Assembly (NCBI RefSeq): GCF_963921235.1
Contig: NC_086097.1
Span: forward strand, 6,510,001 to 6,574,000
Source of the DNA: Mobula hypostoma
Lineage: Eukaryota
Reading direction: 5' to 3'
DNA length: 64,000 nucleotides
Shown here: piece by piece, positions 1,998 to 44,650 of the stretch
How positions within the stretch are numbered: the stretch's first letter is position 1
How the letters are laid out: every line of letters begins with the position of its first letter
The notes under the pieces: generated by a model
The model's database searches: none
What the model was told of the DNA's origin: nothing
The model's input: only the letters and a program-made list of their open reading frames with translations
Position numbers and translations under genes: made by a program

Positions 1998-2044
<47 letters not shown>

Positions 2045-2498
2045 TGTACACGTGTATATATATATATATATATATATATAATTGGGGTTGAATTTGAATT
2101 TGTAGACATTCTGGCCTGGAACTGAAACTGCAGTTAACAATAATACTTAAAAATAGGAATTCAAATAGTTTCCTAACTAACTAGATATAAATAGAAAGGC
2201 AAGGGTTAGTCTGTAAACCTTTAAATAAGGAATAGCAGCAGATCTAATTACATAGAGAAATTGGAGTAATAAAGATTATTCTAATGAATCTCACTGATTC
2301 TAATTAAAAAGGAATTTGGTTTTCGTTGCTATCTGAGATTTGGAACCTGAGGCAGAACGTTAGAATTTTGAGTAGTTATTACTCATGTAAATATTTTGTA
2401 TATATTGCTATTTTTATAAACAAACTTACCTCTAAAAGAGTGTGTTTTCTATTCACTGCCTCCTTCCGATACCTAGAATTTCTGATGGCCCACTAACA
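1061..2498 (+). mobile_element. Candidate LTR-element remnant (LTR-like segment, tRNA-Arg PBS-like motif, leader)
   Basis: ...AAACA (1755) is followed by TGGCGAGCCAACCAAGAT (1759-1776), 15/18 identical to the complement of the tRNA-Arg(ACG) 3' end. A TG..CA bracket is possible at 1061/2498, but I found no TSD and no gag/pol. Confidence 0.35.
1981..2080. repeat. Compound (TG)n(TA)n(CA)n(TA)n microsatellite, near-palindromic
   Basis: Read directly; GTGTACGTGTG..TATA..CACACATGTACAC is self-complementary around the (TA)n centre. Confidence 0.95.
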
Positions 2499-2631
2499 CC
2501 TATTATAGTACTATGTAATTTGACTTTCTCATTAAGTACGCAGCGACCAGTCACTCAAGATAAAACCAGCACTACACAGGTGTTACACTATTCTCAGTGT
2601 TAATCGGTTACCAAGTTTTGAATTGTCTTTA

Positions 2632-3675
2632 TTTCTTACTTCCTTCACGTACACGAGGAGTAAAAATCTTTACATTATGTCTCAGTCTAAATGTGCAATG
2701 TGTAATCATAATAATTTATAATGATTTCTAATAAATAGAACAGTCAATGTAACATAGAAATACACTCAAATCAATGTGAGTTAATCGGTCTGATGGTCTG
2801 GTGGAAGAAGCTGTCCCGGAGTCCATTGGTTCTGGCTTATATGCTGCGGTACCATTTCCCAGATGGTAGCAGCTGGAATAGATCATGGTTGGGGTGACTT
2901 AGGTCCCCACTGATCCTTCAGGTCCCTTTCTCACACCTGTCTTTGTTAATGTCCTGCAAAAGATGTGCTGGGCTGTCCGCACCACTCTCTACAGAGTCCT
3001 GCGATTGAGGGAAGTACAGTTCCCATACCAGGCAGTGATGCAGCCAGTCAGGATGCTCTCAATTGTGCCCCTGCAGAAAGTTCTTAGGATTTGGGGATCC
3101 ATACCAAACTTCCTCAACCATCTGCAGTGAAAGAGGCGCTGTTGTGTCTTTTTCACCATACATCCAGTGTGTACAGACCACGTGAGGTCCTCAGTGATGT
3201 GGAACTTAAAGCTGTTTACCCTCTCAACCTCAGATCCATTGATGTCAATACGGGTTAGCCTGTCTCCATTCCACAACCAGCCCCTTTGTTTTTGCAACAT
3301 TGAGGGAGAGATTGTTTACTTGACACCACTGTGTCAGAGAGATGACTTCTTCCCTGTAGGCCACTTCATTATTGTTTGAGTTTAGGCTAAGTGTCATCAG
3401 CAAATTTAATTAGCAGATTGGAGCTGTGGGTGGTGACACAGTCATGGGTATACAGTGAGTAAAGGAGGGGGCTTAGTACAAAGCCCTGAGGGACTCCTGT
3501 GTTGAGAGTCAGAGGGATGGAGGTGAGGGAACGCAATCTTACCACCTGCCAGTGATCTGACAGGAAGTCCAGGATCCAGCTGCACATGACAGAGTCAAGG
3601 CCGAGGTCTCTGAGCTTCCTATCGAGCCTGCATGGAATTATGGTGTTGAAGGCTGAACTGTAGTCCAGGAACAGT
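2632..3675 (-). mobile_element. Rex1/Babar-type LINE, decayed RT to 3' UTR
   Basis: ORFs 3387-3587 (CSWILDFLSD..GVPQGFVLSPLLYSLYTHDCV..KFADDT) and 2989-3300 (ITEDLTWS..GTIESILTGCITAWYGNC). Confidence 0.9.
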
Positions 3676-16512: not shown

Positions 16513-16580
16513 TGGCGCGTGGCCAAGTGGTTAAGGCATCAGTCTAATAATCTGAAGGTTGCTAGTTCAAGCCTCAGCTG
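16513..16580 (+). mobile_element. tRNA-derived SINE head (not an intact tRNA)
   Basis: A-box TGGCCAAGTGG and B-box-like AGTTCAAGCC; acceptor and anticodon stems do not close. Confidence 0.55.
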
Positions 16581-37993: not shown

Positions 37994-40509
37994 AGCAGTT
38001 ATAATGGGTGACTTCAATCTGCATGTAGATTGGGTGAACCAAATTGGTAAAGGTGCTGAGGAAGAGGATTTCTTGGAATGTATGCGGGATGGTTTTTTGA
38101 ACAAACATGTCGAGGAACCAACTAGAGAGTAGGCTATTCTGGACTGGGTTTTGAGCAATGAGGAAGGGTTAATTAGCAATCTTGTCGTGAGAGGCCCCTT
38201 GGGTAAGAGTGACCATAATATGGTGGAATTCTTCATTAAGATGGAGAGTGACATAGTTAATTCAGAAACAAAGGTTCTGAACTTAAAGAGGGGTAACTTT
38301 GAAGGTATGAGACGTGAATTAGCTAAGATAGACTGGCAAATGACACTTAAAGGATTGACGGTGGATATGCAATGGCAAGCATTTAAAGGTTGCATGGATG
38401 AACTACAACAATTGTTCATCCCAGTTTGGCAAAAGAATAAATCAAGGAAGGTAGTGCACCCGTGGCTGACAAGAGAAATTAGGGATAGTATCAGTTCCAA
38501 AGAAGAAGCATACAAATTAGCCAGAGAAAGTGGCTCACCTGAGGACTGGGAGAAATTCAGAGTTCAGCAGAGGAGGACAAAGGGCTTAATTAGGAAGGGG
38601 AAAAAAGATTATGAGAGAAAACTGGCAGGGAACATAAAAACTGACTGTAAAAGCTTTTATAGATATGTAAAAAGGAAAAGACTGGTAAAGACAAATGCAG
38701 GTCCCCTACAGACAGAAACAGGTGAATTGATTATGGGGAGCAAGGACATGGTAGACCAATTGAATAATTACTTTGGTTCTGTCTTCACTAAGGAGGACAT
38801 AAATAATCTTCCAGAAATAGTAGGGGACAGAGGGTCCAGTGAGATGGAGGAACTGAGCGAAATACTTGTTAGTAGGGAAGTGGTGTTAGGTAAATTGAAG
38901 GGATTGAAGGCAGATAAATCCCCAGGGCCAGATGGTCTGCATCCTAGAGTGCTTAAGGAAGTAGCCCAAGAAATAGTGGATGCATTAGTGATAATTTTTC
39001 AAAACTCGTTAGATTCTGGACTAGTTCCTGAGGATTGGAGGGTGGCTAATGTAACCCCACTTTTTAAAAAAGGAGGGAGAGAGAAACCGGGGAATTATAG
39101 ACCGGTTAGCCTAACATCGGTGGTGGGGAAATTGCTGGAGTCAGTTATCAAAGATGTGATAACAGCACATTTGGAAAGCGGTGAAATCATTGGACAAAGT
39201 CAGCATGGATTTGTGAAAGGAAAATCATGTCTGACGAATCTCATAGAATTTTTTGAGGATGTAACTAGTAGAGTGGATAGGGGAGAACCAGTGGATGTGG
39301 TATATTTGGATTTTCAAAAGGCTTTTGACAAGGTCCCACACAGGAGATTAGTGTGCAAACTTAAAGCACACGGTATTGGGGGTAAGGTATTGATGTGGAT
39401 GGAGAATTGGTTAGCAGACAGGAAGCAAAGAGTGGGAATAAACGGGACCTTTTCAGAATGGCAGGCAGTGACCAGTGGGGTACCGCAAGGCTCAGTGCTG
39501 GGACCACAGTTGTTTACTATATATATTAATGACTTAGACGAGGGAATTAAATGCAGCATCTCCAAGTTTGCGGATGACACAAAGCTGGGCGGCAGTGTTA
39601 GCTGTGAGGAGGATGCTAAGAGGATGCAGAGTGACTTGGATAGGTTGGGTGAGTGGGCAAATTCATGGCAGATGCAATTTAATGTGGATAAATGTGAAGT
39701 TATCCACTTTGGTGGCAAAAATAGGAAAACAGATTATTATCTGAATGGTGGCCGATTAGGAAAAGGGGAGGTGCAACGAGACCTGGGTGTCATTATACAC
39801 CAATCATTGAAAGTGGGCATGCAGGTACAGCAGGTGGTGAAAAAGGCGAATGGTATGCTGGCATTTATAGCGAGAGGATTCGAGTACAGGAGCAGGGAGG
39901 TACTACTGCAGTTGTACAAGGCCTTGGTGAGACCACACCTGGAGTATTGTGTGCAGTTTTGGTCCCCTAATCTGAGGGAAGACATCCTTGCCATAGAGGG
40001 AGTACAAAGAAGGTTCACCAGATTGATTCCTGGGATGGCAGGACTTTCATATGCAGAAAGACTGGATGAACTGGGCTTGTACTCGTTGGAATTTAGAAGA
40101 TTGAGGGGGGATCTGATTGAAACATATAAAATCCTAAAGGGATTGGACAGGCTAGATGCAGGAAGATTGTTCCTGATGTTGGGGAACTCCAGAACGAGGG
40201 GTCACAGTTTGAGGATAAAGGGGAAGCCTTTTAGGACCGAGATTAGGAAAAACTTCTTCACACAGAGAGTGGAGAATCTGTGGAATTCACTGCCACAGGA
40301 AACAGTTGAGGCTAGTTCATTGGCTATATTTAAGAGGGAGTTAGATATGGCCCTTGTGGCTAAAGGGATCAGGGCGTATGGAGGGAAGGCTGGTGCAGGG
40401 TTCTGAGTTGGATGATCAGCCATGATCATAATAAATGGCAGTGTAGGCTCGAAGGGCCGAATGGCCTACTCCTGCACCTATTTTCTATATTTCTATGTTT
40501 CTATGTTTC
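37994..40509 (+). mobile_element. Young CR1 LINE, 5'-truncated in the endonuclease domain, 7-bp TSD TATGCAC
   Basis: TATGCAC at 37987-37993 and 40510-40516; (TTTCTATG)n tail. Confidence 0.97.
38151..40406 (+). CDS. CR1 ORF2 reverse transcriptase, 751-aa open frame lacking the endonuclease N-terminus
   Basis: KSPGPDG, NYRPVSLTS, QHGF, YLDFQKAFDKVPH, GVPQGSVLGP and KFADDTKL all intact. The frame starts at a TTG; an in-frame TAG near 38129 corresponds to CAG in the 8067 copy. Not autonomous. Confidence 0.9.
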   Translation: MSNEEGLISNLVVRGPLGKSDHNMVEFFIKMESDIVNSETKVLNLKRGNFEGMRRELAKIDWQMTLKGLTVDMQWQAFKGCMDELQQLFIPVWQKNKSRKVVHPWLTREIRDSISSKEEAYKLARESGSPEDWEKFRVQQRRTKGLIRKGKKDYERKLAGNIKTDCKSFYRYVKRKRLVKTNAGPLQTETGELIMGSKDMVDQLNNYFGSVFTKEDINNLPEIVGDRGSSEMEELSEILVSREVVLGKLKGLKADKSPGPDGLHPRVLKEVAQEIVDALVIIFQNSLDSGLVPEDWRVANVTPLFKKGGREKPGNYRPVSLTSVVGKLLESVIKDVITAHLESGEIIGQSQHGFVKGKSCLTNLIEFFEDVTSRVDRGEPVDVVYLDFQKAFDKVPHRRLVCKLKAHGIGGKVLMWMENWLADRKQRVGINGTFSEWQAVTSGVPQGSVLGPQLFTIYINDLDEGIKCSISKFADDTKLGGSVSCEEDAKRMQSDLDRLGEWANSWQMQFNVDKCEVIHFGGKNRKTDYYLNGGRLGKGEVQRDLGVIIHQSLKVGMQVQQVVKKANGMLAFIARGFEYRSREVLLQLYKALVRPHLEYCVQFWSPNLREDILAIEGVQRRFTRLIPGMAGLSYAERLDELGLYSLEFRRLRGDLIETYKILKGLDRLDAGRLFLMLGNSRTRGHSLRIKGKPFRTEIRKNFFTQRVENLWNSLPQETVEASSLAIFKRELDMALVAKGIRAYGGKAGAGF

Positions 40510-40544: not shown

Positions 40545-40805
40545 TTGTTTGTTTATTTGTTTATTTATCTGTTTATCTATTTATTTACTTACTGAGAAAC
40601 ACTGCTCAACAGACCTTCCAGCCCTTTGAGCCGCACCACCCAGCAATCCCTTATTTTAACTCTTGCCCAATCACAGGACTGTTTACGATGACCAACCAAT
40701 CTACCAACTGGCATGAATTTGGACTGTGGCAGGAAACCAGTGGACCCAAGTGGAGCTCACACAGTCACGGAGAGAACGTACAAACTCATTACAGGCAGCA
40801 ATGGG
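40545..40805 (-). mobile_element. V-domain SINE, 5'-truncated
   Basis: TTTGGACTGTGGCAGGAAACCAG core and (TTTA)n tail. Confidence 0.8.
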
Positions 40806-40832
40806 AAATATTTTTGTCAAACCACATGATTA

Positions 40833-41115
40833 TAAACTCTACCAACGGTCCCAAGCCTGGCAGAGAACGGAGCTCCAACATGGGTGGGCCCAAGCCCAGC
40901 TGGGAATGGTGGAGGGTTCGTCATGGGGCCGGTAACCCTAACCTGTAAAAGTCCAGAGTTATAGAAACACCAACAGAAGCTCCAAAGATCTCACCCCTGA
41001 AGGATATACCATAAAGACGGGCTGCACCTGTGGACACCTTGAAAGATTGGCCCAGAACAGAGGACTCTGTTGAGCTACCCTCCAGTAGGGGTGATGGGCC
41101 TTGAGAAGAAGACAA
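40833..41115 (+). mobile_element. Short bipartite RTE-derived element with twister-like 5' end
   Basis: 5' AACTCTACCAACGGTCCCAAGCCTGG..GGAGGGTT..GGGGCCGGTAACCCTAACCTGTAAAA; 3' GAAAGATTGGCCCAGAACAGAGGACTCTG..CCAGTAGGGGTGATGGGC; homologous to 43405-43857 (minus). Confidence 0.7.
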
Positions 41116-41579
41116 GTTTATAACATTCATATTCAACAAATTCATCTGTACACATTTTACCAACTCAAGAAAATCAAGCTGTTGATCTTTTTCATTGTTC
41201 AGATAAAAATGATCTCTACAATTCATTCAAACAACCAACGGACAGATATATTGTCTTAAGATAAATAATATGAGTCTAACATCAATAACTATGGTTTGAA
41301 CTGTTCCCAAATCCTTGGAAGTAGCTTGACTGATGATGCAATTAATTCCAGCATGTAATGTGGAACATTTAAAAGCGATGAAGAATTCTATTGCATTTTA
41401 CTTTGTGATAGTCACTTCCCTGAAAGTAAATGCTAATGAAGTGGAAACCAGAACTTTCAACAAGCAACCCTGCTGACTGATCTGATTTCCCCGTTAATCA
41501 TGCTTCCGCTTTCCTCCTGCACCACATCTGAATATCACTCTGAAGTAATTACTACAGTCGCATAATGATTAGTGCAACT

Positions 41580-42205
41580 CCATCTCCCTCTCTCTCTCTC
41601 CCTCTTTTTTTCCTCTCCCTCTTTCTCTCTCCCTCTGTCTTTCTTTCTCTCTCCCTCTCTCCAATGAAGCAGTGGAACCTATCTCAGTAAACCTACTTAA
41701 GACAAGGTTGGATAGATTTCTGTGTAGTAGGGAAATTAGGAGTTATGGGGAAAAGGCAGGTAGGTGGAGATGAGTCCATGGCCAGATCAGCCTTGATCCT
41801 ATTGAATGGTAGAACAGGCTCACTGGGCTGGATGGTCTACTCCTGCTCCTATTTCTTATGCTATTATAGTCTCTCCCTCTCTCGCTCACTTACTTTCTCT
41901 CACTTGCTTTCTCTCTCATTCTCCCTCCCTCTTTTGTCTTACCTTCTCTCGCTCTGCCTTTCTCTACCTCTTCTTCTCCCTCCCTCTTTTCTCTTACCTT
42001 CTCTCACTCTGCCTTTCTGTACCTCTTCTTCTCCCTCCCTCTTTTCTCTTACCTTCTCTCGCTCTGCCTTTCTCTATCTTCTCTTCTCCTTCTCTCTCTG
42101 CCCCTTTCTTTTGCTCCCTCTCTTTTTCCCTTCTTTCTCTCGCTCCTCTCTTTCTCTCTCTCCCCCTCCCCTTTCTCTCTACCTCCTGCTTGCTCTCTCT
42201 GGGAG

Positions 42206-42270
<65 letters not shown>
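41580..42270. repeat. Polypyrimidine tract with a 55-bp x3 tandem repeat (about 41919-42080), a CR1 3' tail (about 41665-41865) and (GA)n (42204-42270)
   Basis: CTCCCTCCCT recurs at 41921, 41976 and 42031; (GA)n read directly. Confidence 0.9.
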
Positions 42271-42275
<5 letters not shown>

Positions 42276-42784
42276 ATCACACCTGTAATAAGTGGCAATT
42301 GAAAGCTCAGCTCCAATTCTGTAAGCAAAGTTTGTTTCCCACTGAAATGAGAGATGCACTAAAATAAGTGTTGTTTACTCAGACCATTGACAAGCTTACC
42401 CATTGAAACAAACCACATTCTAATGGCATAATTGCTACAATTGGCTTTTGGAAATGCACAGATCCATTAGGCACAGCAGGCAATGGAAGCACAAAGAGAT
42501 ATTATAAAGGGGGAAATGAATAGACTATTCTACATGTAATTAGGAGATCAGAAGCAATAGATCTGAATTTGATGGTAACCAGGAAAAAGCATTGTTGGAA
42601 TGGCAACACAAGAAAGAATGTGTGTGGATGATGGATTCAATTAAATTCATGGTTTTCTCTGGCTGGATTAAATGTTTCAAGAAAAGTGCTGAGAAGCAAC
42701 AGCATAGATACTGTCAGTAGAAAAGTTTCCGAAGAAGCGGAAACAAATCATAGCTGAAGGCTTTTTTTATTTCTTGTAATCTAT

Positions 42785-43195
42785 TTCCATCCCCCTTCCC
42801 ACTTTTTCAACTCTCCAATCTGGTCTCTTCTCCCCACCTGCCTATCACCTCTCTGTAGTGCCTCTCTTCTTTCCCCTTCTCCCATGGTCCACTCTCATCT
42901 CCCATCAGATACCTTCTTGGGCAGCCCTTTACCTCTTCCACCTATCACCACCCAGCTTCCTTCAACATCACTTAGCACCCACCCACCCACTTGTCTTCAC
43001 CTATGACCTTCCAGCTTGATCTCCTCCCGCTCTCCCAGCCTTCTTATTCTGGGATCTTCCCCCTTCCTTTCCAGTCCTGAAGAAGGGTCTCAGCCGGAAA
43101 CATCAATAGTTTATTCTTTTCCACAGATGCTGCCTGACCTGCTGAGTTCCTCCAGTAATTTGTGTGGGTTGTTCTGGATTTCCAGCATCTACAGC
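42785..43195 (+). mobile_element. PLE terminal repeat with decayed hammerhead (43072-43107)
   Basis: CAGTC-CTGAAGA-AGGGTCTCAGCCG-GAAA-CATC..GATGCTGCCTGACCTGCTGAGTTCCTCCAG. Confidence 0.8.
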
Positions 43196-43404
43196 GTTAT
43201 TGATGAAGGTTACGAATCTTCTGAACTTGTGGGTAAAGTGGTTCCAGCTTTTGGAAGCATACGCTCACGAGGCTGAGGGGCTGCTCCAGGCTCGAGGCAG
43301 CAAACAATTCACTCAAATGAAAGCTCTCAATGGACCACTCAGTGTATCTGAGGACTGAGGAAAGTGTATTCAAAGGCCAACTTTCCAGTGGGTATGAGGA
43401 GTCT

Positions 43405-43857
43405 ATATGCCATCACCCCTACTGGGGCATAGACTGCCAGCAGAAGTCAAGGTAAAAGTCAAGTACATTTATTGTCAAAGTATGTGTATGATATACCACC
43501 TTGAGATTTGTCTCCTTACAGGCAGCCACAAGACAAAGAAACGCAATAGAACCCACTTGTAAAAAAAATTGAACGTCCAATGTGCAGAAAAAAAATCAAA
43601 TCGTGCAAACAACTGAAGTTCACAAAAGTGAGTCCATAGCCACAAAGCCAGTCATTACTGCTGCCTTCGTTCAGCTAGAGTCCTCTGTATTGGGCAGGAT
43701 GTAGCTCGTCAAAGATTCGTCCGCTCCCAGGGATGAGGTCTTTGAAGCTTCTGCTAGTGTCTCTGTAGCACTGGGTTTTTATGGGTTGGGGTAGCTAGCC
43801 CCATGCACAACCTTCCTCCTTTGGTAGCCGGGCTTGAAACCATCCATGGTGGGGTTA
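43405..43857 (-). mobile_element. Second copy of the twister-headed RTE-derived element, split by a Rex-type tail (about 43447-43675)
   Basis: Reverse complement TAACCCCACCATGGATGGTTTCAAGCCCGG..AAAGGAGGAAGGTTGTGCATGGGGCTAGCTACCCCAACCCATAAAAA; 3' end CCCCAGTAGGGGTGATGG at about 43409-43427. Confidence 0.7.
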
Positions 43858-43859
43858 TG

Positions 43860-44650
43860 CTGCCATGGTGCAGCTGAAAATAACCTTTAGTTAGGTCACA
43901 TTTGGAGTATTGTGTATAGTTCTGGTTGTCACACGACAGGAAAGGTGTCGAGGCCATGCAGAAGGTGAAGAAGAGATTCACCAAGATGGTGCCTGGATTA
44001 GACATTATGACATGTAAGAAGATGTGGGACAAATTCGTTTTGTTTTCTCTGGAATATAGGATGCTGAGGGGCGACTGGTAGAAATATATAATATCTTGAA
44101 AGGACTAATTAAAAGAGGTAGTCAGAGTATTTTTCCCAGTGCGGCACCACTGTAGCGTAGCGGATAGCAGAAAGTTATTACAGCTTGGGGCATTGGAGCT
44201 CATTGTTCAATTCCAGTGCCAGCTGTTGTAAGCTTCTACGTCCTCCCGTGAATGCATGGGTGAGTAGGTTAATTGGTCATTGTAAATTGTCCTTTGATTA
44301 GATCAGTGTTAATTAAATAGGTTGCTGAGCCTGTTCCGCATTGTTTCTCCAAATAAATAAATTTTTTTTAAAAATTATCAAATGTTGGAGGACATAGGTG
44401 AGGGTAGGGAGGGAGGGTGTGAAGTTGAAAGGAGATATGTGAGGCAAGTGCCTGGATTACATTGCCAGGGGAGATGGTGATAACACTCACTATGGTAATC
44501 TTTAAGAGGCATTTTGACAGATACATGAAAAGATATAGAATAGAATGGTACAGATTGTGTGGGCAGATAGTATTAGTTAGACTGGTTTCAAACAGCAGTG
44601 CAAACATAACAAGCTGCAGGGCCTGTTCTATGCTCGATGCTCTGTTCTAT
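43860..44650 (+). mobile_element. Old CR1 3' part split by a V-SINE (44141-44362)
   Basis: TTGGAGTATTGTGTATAGTTCTGG (LEYCV.FW) before the SINE; CR1 3' UTR after it. Confidence 0.75.

Follow-up and report, generated by a model that had tools for sequence, protein, structure and literature searches.

A twister-like sequence on the minus strand of the Mobula hypostoma genome raises the question of whether a self-cleaving RNA once set the 5' end of a retrotransposon family, and whether the copy found there still could. The sequence lies in a 64,000-nucleotide stretch of contig NC_086097.1 (the window, numbered here from its first letter). To our knowledge, the biological role of twister ribozymes long remained unconfirmed, with the 5' processing of the flatworm element Perere-3 being the one worked-out case. 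The flagged stretch is probably the dead 5' module of a non-autonomous RTE family, whose source module, as read from the sequences of its copies, would have been a minimal type-P1 twister lacking P3.

The flagged copy and its element

The preliminary description of the window placed a twister-like sequence on the minus strand, and positions 43857-43805 read exactly as it gave them. This decayed core without P3 (43805..43857, minus strand) was defined from the sequence itself, from the Rfam twister-P1 model (RF03160) and from an alignment with 51 family copies. The equivalent of U(-1) is 43857, and the first base of the element, an A, is 43856. The first half of the core consists of the P2 5' strand, the GCC segment (here ACC), a short linker that replaces P3, and P4 with its L4 loop. 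These are followed by the A-rich L2 strand, GGAG (the P2 3' strand), the GAGGG segment (here GAAGG) and the P1 3' strand.

In a cmscan search of positions 43400-44100 (701 nt), RF03160 aligns to 43807-43861 on the minus strand over the full length of the model with a score of 16.9 bits (E 1.3), and this alignment omits the six-pair P3 hairpin of the model. The gathering score of RF03160 is 67.2 bits, and no twister is found in the whole 64-kb window at Rfam gathering thresholds. Taken alone, the window copy is therefore not beyond chance, since its 16.9 bits correspond to an E value of 1.3 in a 701-nt search.

Comparison with relatives is more informative about the state of this copy. Relative to the majority sequence of a 52-copy alignment, it carries eight substitutions in 53 bases (82% identity). 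One is found in P2, one changes the G of the T2 partner, two fall in the CCC of L4, and one alters GAGGG. The remaining three affect the A-rich strand (two) and the P1 3' strand (one). Three of the four P2 pairs are kept and the UAA site reads TAA. The L4 loop has UUUC where the family has UCCC, and the pseudoknots T1 and T2 are each short of one Watson-Crick pair. Because of these eight core substitutions and the pairs lost in P2, T1 and T2, the window copy is most likely an inactive, dead relic. The same suspicion had been voiced at the outset and was reasonable, since the substitutions listed then are present together with others.

The whole short RTE-derived element measures about 212 nt (43645..43856, minus strand), as defined by blastn, by its tail motif and by a search of the organism's own genome. 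It comprises the twister head, a 5' UTR remnant, a decayed remnant of the C-terminus of the RTE open reading frame (ORF), and a tail, with a tail-like motif at 43658-43645 on the minus strand. The reference copy, L020, aligns by blastn with positions 43857-43720 at 84.2% identity.

A second copy of the element occupies 40835..41113 on the plus strand, where blastn aligns 40873-41074 at 79.8% identity. It does start with AACTC at 40835, as had been stated, but it lies on the plus strand and its head is rearranged. Within 40835-40920 (plus strand) the twister region is partly duplicated in tandem, giving about 1.7 units. The proposed Rfam check gave 16.9 bits for the flagged copy, up to 46.9 bits within the family, and no Rfam match at E <=10 for the second copy. 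Head-to-tail duplication of the head recurs in one contig from a public sequencing run, in which the end of a unit is joined to AACTCC and a new unit.

The 5' flank of the flagged element is an older LINE relic (43860..44099, plus strand). Its translation includes the string ...LVRSHLEYCV*FW..., which we take to be the C-terminal tail of a CR1-type ORF2. A repeat designated D3 pairs 39924-39963 with 43887-43926 at 78%. The sole Rfam match in the window that attains gathering level is a tRNA-like sequence at 16518-16580 (plus strand; 29.1 bits versus a gathering score of 29), which may be a tRNA-derived SINE head.

Downstream of the head, family copies carry a stretch of about 110 nt and then in-frame remnants of a protein C-terminus. 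With a profile built from seven of these C-terminal remnants (A1), 38 proteins are recovered at E <=1. Among them are ~1000-amino-acid proteins that carry RVT_1, Exo_endo_phos_2 and DUF6451 domains and match the remnant at their C-termini, and the RTE derivation first suggested from the letters is thereby upheld. Assignment to the RTE clade is based on motifs of the C-terminus and on one A1 match with a BovB-related name, CFDP2, which is presumably a BovB/RTE-derived gene. In the short form of the element, the 5' UTR is joined at the start codon to the last ~37 codons, and the long form additionally keeps ~18 N-terminal codons. Both forms end in the tail followed by (AAG)n, and most family copies are ~250-300 nt long. 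The ORF remnants and the two internally joined forms identify the element as an internally deleted RTE. One copy (L059, minus strand, about 1551-870) reaches ~680 nt, and blastn finds an internal stretch of ~70 nt repeated several times in it. Beside another copy (L016) is a 368-amino-acid open frame (2033-3136, plus strand) that we take to be Penelope-like from its reverse-transcriptase motifs and GIY-YIG-like C-terminus.

Twister features of the family head

The 52-copy alignment combines the window copy with 51 copies drawn from two samples, one chosen with the head included and one by the element body only. Its majority sequence begins with U, AA, the P2 strand CUCC, GCC, and a 5-nt linker at the place where most twisters carry P3. 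It continues with a three-pair P4 that closes the loop UCCCAAGC, an A-rich strand ending in GAAA, and the segments GGAG, GAGGG and UUGG. Both the majority sequence and the best copies preserve the L4 loop GUCCCAAGC unchanged. Two pseudoknots were scored, T1 between L4 and the L1 3' strand GAGGG, and T2 between L4 and the L2 5' strand GC, with partners assigned from the general architecture of the class and from the available text of a review (PMC6154101).

Pairing is retained in 88.6% of the P2 cells (CUCC with GGAG) and 81.3% of the P4 cells of this alignment. The corresponding values for T1 and T2 are 79.1% and 69.9%, and both pseudoknots are complementary in the majority sequence. For the whole twister structure, including the pseudoknots, 72.5% of cells are paired, versus 36-57% when the partners are slid against each other. 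P1, whose 5' strand is flanking DNA, has 46.2% of its cells paired, which is about chance.

No covariation is detected beyond that of shuffled alignments (72.5% paired versus 72.6%), in a test that has no power on 52 neutrally decaying copies. Such an absence is expected because these copies are dead insertions of a single family, and selection on the fold thus appears unsupported by the 52 family copies. Minimum-free-energy folding of four heads gives values no better than those of shuffles (z -1.0 to +0.4), a measure that is uninformative for a pseudoknotted fold.

The Rfam model recognizes the family much more readily than the window copy. When 20 related loci (62,972 nt) were searched with 4227 Rfam families, RF03160 matched at E <=1 in ten of them, always at the first bases of the element. 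The best of the 20 loci is L020, with 39.8 bits (E 3e-5), and the only non-twister matches are mir-14 (E 0.73) and SCARNA7 (E 0.083). In a genome-wide RF03160 search, 57 of 62 scored candidates match at E <=10. The best of these 62 has 46.9 bits, and none of them reaches the gathering score of 67.2 bits. P3 is deleted in every RF03160 alignment of family copies, and the family falls below the gathering score because this optional hairpin is missing. Standard annotation pipelines will miss such twister relics, since their scores are below the Rfam cut-off.

In the available text of the review cited above, P0, P3 and P5 are described as optional, with P3 present in 78% of annotated twisters and absent from 22% (PMC6154101). 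The crystallized rice twister lacks all three, and P1 is dispensable for cleavage (same source). Two details of the family count against the twister reading. In the majority sequence, an A-G mismatch takes the place of the model's outermost P4 pair. The L2 3' strand has a 3-nt insertion and then GAAA, versus UAAA in the model. At the level of primary sequence, the majority sequence contains the class-defining elements of a twister, and the copies remain short of the curated Rfam score. The twister identity proposed from the window copy is better founded on its relatives, because the family copies and the majority sequence fit the class far better and keep P2, P4, L4, GAGGG and the pseudoknots.

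Element boundaries and related RTE lineages

Family copies were sought in the organism's own genome (3.48 Gb, 200 contigs) with positions 43870-43560 (minus strand) as the query. This search returned 2905 first-look candidates. All 40 of the 2905 candidates that were scored matched, and 39 of these are other loci with 79-86% identity. In 24 of the 39, the alignment starts at query position 13-16, where position 14 is the T at 43857. Copies aligned with their flanks have nothing in common upstream of the AAC start. A second sample of 29 copies was chosen by the element body alone, with the head excluded. Of its members, 21 align from reference position 8 or lower, three from positions 11-20, and five are truncated at positions 23-69.

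The boundary claimed at the UAA site is therefore supported by both samples, and none of the 29 body-chosen copies extends 5' into common upstream sequence. In the 52-copy alignment, mean pairwise identity is 0.27 in the eight columns upstream of the U position versus 0.73-0.79 inside the element, and identity of the copies to the majority sequence averages 84.6%. The first two bases of the element are A in 45 and 41 of the 51 copies, respectively. In a comparison with contigs of four sequencing runs, sequences at least 90% alike to the element, though not to its flanks, are present in runs of three organisms, a match that is uninformative about starts or cleavage.

The base that precedes AA is T in 25 of the 51 copies, where the T content of the window is 0.281 (binomial p = 3.9e-4 on a hand count of 25 of 48, with three copies lacking a clear AAC start dropped). 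T is also found at position -3 in 24 of 51 copies, and in several copies the T before AA falls inside the target-site duplication. Because T is equally enriched at -3 and lies within duplications, a target preference is the simplest reading of this bias. Untemplated addition of A by the reverse transcriptase was considered as another source of the T before AA and was set aside on the same observations.

Target-site duplications adjoin the same 5' end. A recognizable tail is present in 40 of 78 copies inspected. Among these 40, 12 have a flanking direct repeat that scores at least 9, versus one of 200 decoys. The duplication ends within 2 nt of the first A in ten of the 12, and duplications in family copies are 8-15 bp long.

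A search with the protein P0019 reveals several RTE lineages in this genome. The only intact RTE among the scored matches (C36:131599262-131602213, minus strand) has a 1018-amino-acid ORF without stops, is 56% identical to P0019 and ends in an (AAG)n tail. Upstream regions were inspected for 22 RTE copies that retain the N-terminus. Two of them carry the twister head (L109 with L119, and L111), and both are decayed. Nine have a different module of ~90 nt and form the lineage RTE-A, which includes the intact copy. Two and seven copies, respectively, have a second and a third 5' type, each of ~200 nt, and two have neither. The presence of the twister head in only two of the 22 copies, together with the different 5' module of the intact relative, counts against the twister reading of the family. 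The ~90-nt module was seen at L091, L093, L095, L098, L101-L103, L113 and L116, and the ~200-nt modules at L096/L105 and at L106-L108, L110, L112, L114 and L117.

The autonomous RTE partner that the preliminary description called for was found in decayed form. A 3312-nt RTE (C40:106932670-106935981) has the twister head and starts TAAC... It matches P0019 residues 5-283 (the endonuclease, with 10 stop codons) and 928-988 (the C-terminus), its tail is 82% identical to that of the short form, and its flanking duplication is AATCATTA. These matches identify it as a near-full-length, twister-headed RTE relative of the short element. An exact pattern linking the twister loop to the start of the endonuclease gave no matches.

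From the GGAGGG...UUGGGC string onward, the 5' UTR of RTE-A shows ~70% identity with the short element. At its 3' end RTE-A is similar to the short element's tail, and (AAG)n is common to both. No Rfam ribozyme family matches the sister 5' modules at E <=10 in L091, L093, L095, L096 and L098. RNAalifold proposes stems for the ~90-nt module, in which no known class is recognized. These 5' modules of the sister lineages may represent ordinary UTRs or processing motifs not yet described.

Directly 3' of the twister is a hairpin with a six-pair stem and a seven-base loop, followed by CCYGUAAAAA (43786..43804, minus strand). The same hairpin and CCYGUAAAAA stand behind the 5' module in four RTE lineages, and the module in front differs by lineage. 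Outside the short element it was located at L093, L095, L098, L101-L103, L113 and L116, at L096 and L105, and at L106-L108. Stems read AUGGGG/CCCCAU, AUAGGG/CCCUAU, GUAGGG/CCCUAC or UCAGGG/CCCUGA depending on the lineage, with pairing mostly kept as judged by eye, and RNAalifold pairs positions 91-98 with 102-109 in RTE-A copies. This hairpin could be a conserved signal of RTE 5' UTRs. Since other modules precede it in related lineages, the 5' module is exchangeable, which shows that RTE lineages of one genome exchange 5' modules around a conserved hairpin.

Precedents, mechanism and alternatives

Twisters at the 5' ends of RTE elements have been described before, and the Schistosoma precedent named in the preliminary description is real. 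In the available text of Liu et al. 2021 (NAR; PMC8501958), a twister 'T-variant' is reported from Schistosoma mansoni, where its place is the 5' end of Perere-3, an element of the RTE clade. Perere-3 twisters are active in vitro and in reporter constructs, target-site duplications adjoin the cleavage site, and the duplication supplies the 5' strand of P1 (PMC8501958). [quoted passage not shown] Compared with the S. mansoni twisters in Table 1 of Liu et al., it is letter-identical in UAA, CUCC, GC, GUCCCAAGC, CCGG, GGAG, GAGGG and UUGG. The letters also agree in P2 and in the 3' strand of P1, both variable in the Rfam consensus, so that common descent is favoured over convergence.

The differences from Perere-3 are also clear in that table. 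Instead of a P3 hairpin, which measures ~20-28 nt in S. mansoni, the family has the 5-nt linker, the first P4 base is A instead of C, and L2 reads CUGCGAAA where S. mansoni has the shorter GUAAA. In contrast to the flatworm element, the present family resides in a 3.48-Gb host genome and consists mostly of internally deleted copies of ~250-300 nt. With RF03160 and the minimal rice twister Osa-1-4, as described in the review text available (PMC6154101), it shares the order of elements, the conserved nucleotides and the P3-less build. It differs from RF03160 in genomic setting and in score, the family copies having 17-47 bits versus the gathering score of 67.2.

Shortened twisters have been mentioned in this context as well. 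According to the available text of de la Pena, Ceprian and Cervera (2020; PMC7761336), which cites work in preparation, truncated twisters that retain catalytic competence are a conserved feature of 5' ends in the RTE superfamily. The same authors propose that RTE twisters function in 5' processing and promote translation. The present heads resemble these in being a shortened form at an RTE 5' end, a likeness by description only. In R2, RTE, Baggins and L1Tc, the 5' end carries an HDV-like ribozyme that is proposed, in the text available, to release the element from a co-transcript (PMC6765202). HDV-like ribozymes would perform the same job as members of another ribozyme class, and they need zero upstream nucleotides. 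A search of full-text literature, in a collection without most subscription journals, found no paper on twister-headed RTE elements in a vertebrate or shark. The supplement of Liu et al. 2021 lists vertebrate hits, and relatives of this family may already be within that list. A twister at an RTE 5' end is thus an already published arrangement, to which this family is a P3-less addition in another genome.

The following sequence of events would account for the family. The element lacks an evident promoter and would be transcribed within a longer RNA, in analogy to Perere-3 and R2. Judging from the positions involved, the twister would fold from element-encoded P2, P4, L4 loop, T1 and T2, with just two parts contributed by the flank, the P1 5' strand and the nucleotide preceding the cut. 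Self-cleavage between that nucleotide and the first A would generate an RNA that begins AACUCC... As the common tail suggests, an RTE reverse transcriptase would recognize the 3' tail with its (AAG)n and use target-primed reverse transcription to place a copy of the RNA at a new site. Self-cleavage followed by target-primed copying would cause new copies to begin exactly at AA, which is where the observed copies begin, between target-site duplications of 8-15 bp. After insertion, the copies decay neutrally. There is a good probability that the family head derives from a twister and that its self-cleavage fixed the 5' end in this manner.

Most of the remaining weight goes to an alternative that we regard as unlikely, in which the head descends from a twister that was already dead in the spreading elements. 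It would then have persisted as a structured 5' UTR serving translation or recognition by the reverse transcriptase, and the 5' end would be set by transcription initiation or by the end point of reverse transcription. Such an origin would accommodate the P4 A-G mismatch, the altered L2 strand, the scores under the Rfam cut-off and the sister RTE lineages, which carry modules matching no ribozyme before the same conserved hairpin. The T enrichment at -1 (25/51) and -3 (24/51) could also reflect a cause other than cleavage. However, the first base of the copies lies exactly at the twister cleavage site, a coincidence that follows without further assumptions if cleavage defines the end, and all class-conserved nucleotides survive in the majority sequence. 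In addition, the same arrangement cleaves in S. mansoni (PMC8501958), and truncated twisters at RTE 5' ends are called catalytically competent (PMC7761336), as far as the available texts of these two papers go.

A resemblance that arose by chance in an ordinary retrotransposon 5' end is strongly disfavoured and has very little probability. The window copy would allow it, with its E value of 1.3 and a second copy that has no match, but family copies reach E 3e-5 among 4227 Rfam families, twister-P1 recurs at the same position in ten of 20 loci, and every segment named above agrees letter for letter with the RTE twisters of S. mansoni. The string GGTTTCAAGCCC of the window copy is superficially like a tRNA T-arm, and a head derived from a tRNA-type SINE promoter, with this string as a box-B-like T-arm, was accordingly considered. 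It retains practically no probability and is refuted by the finding of zero tRNA genes in 40700-44100 (ARAGORN), by the absence of a tRNA match at E <=10 in the cmscan search of 43400-44100, and by the family majority, which reads GGTCCCAAGCCCGG at this place and is not a box B. RTE 5' UTR and ORF remnants make up the remainder of the element.

Self-cleavage by a twister that lost its activity in decayed copies is thus the preferred reading, and the checks called for at the outset came out on its side. A wider proposal is rather doubtful: the partnership of twisters and RTE elements among animals would be ancient or horizontally spread, and the P3-less head would be homologous to that of Perere-3 and one of several swappable RTE 5' modules. 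If well-preserved copies still cleave, the unmatched modules in front of the sister RTE lineages might conceal additional self-cleaving motifs not described so far.

The arrangement known from a flatworm is found here in a 3.5-Gb genome, amplified to thousands of candidate internally deleted copies. Its presence supports twister cleavage as a general route by which RTE elements could free their 5' ends from host transcripts. The heads of this family are candidate natural minimal twisters that could be used for testing. If well-preserved copies still cleave, they would constitute a natural twister of minimal form whose role in a large genome is defined.
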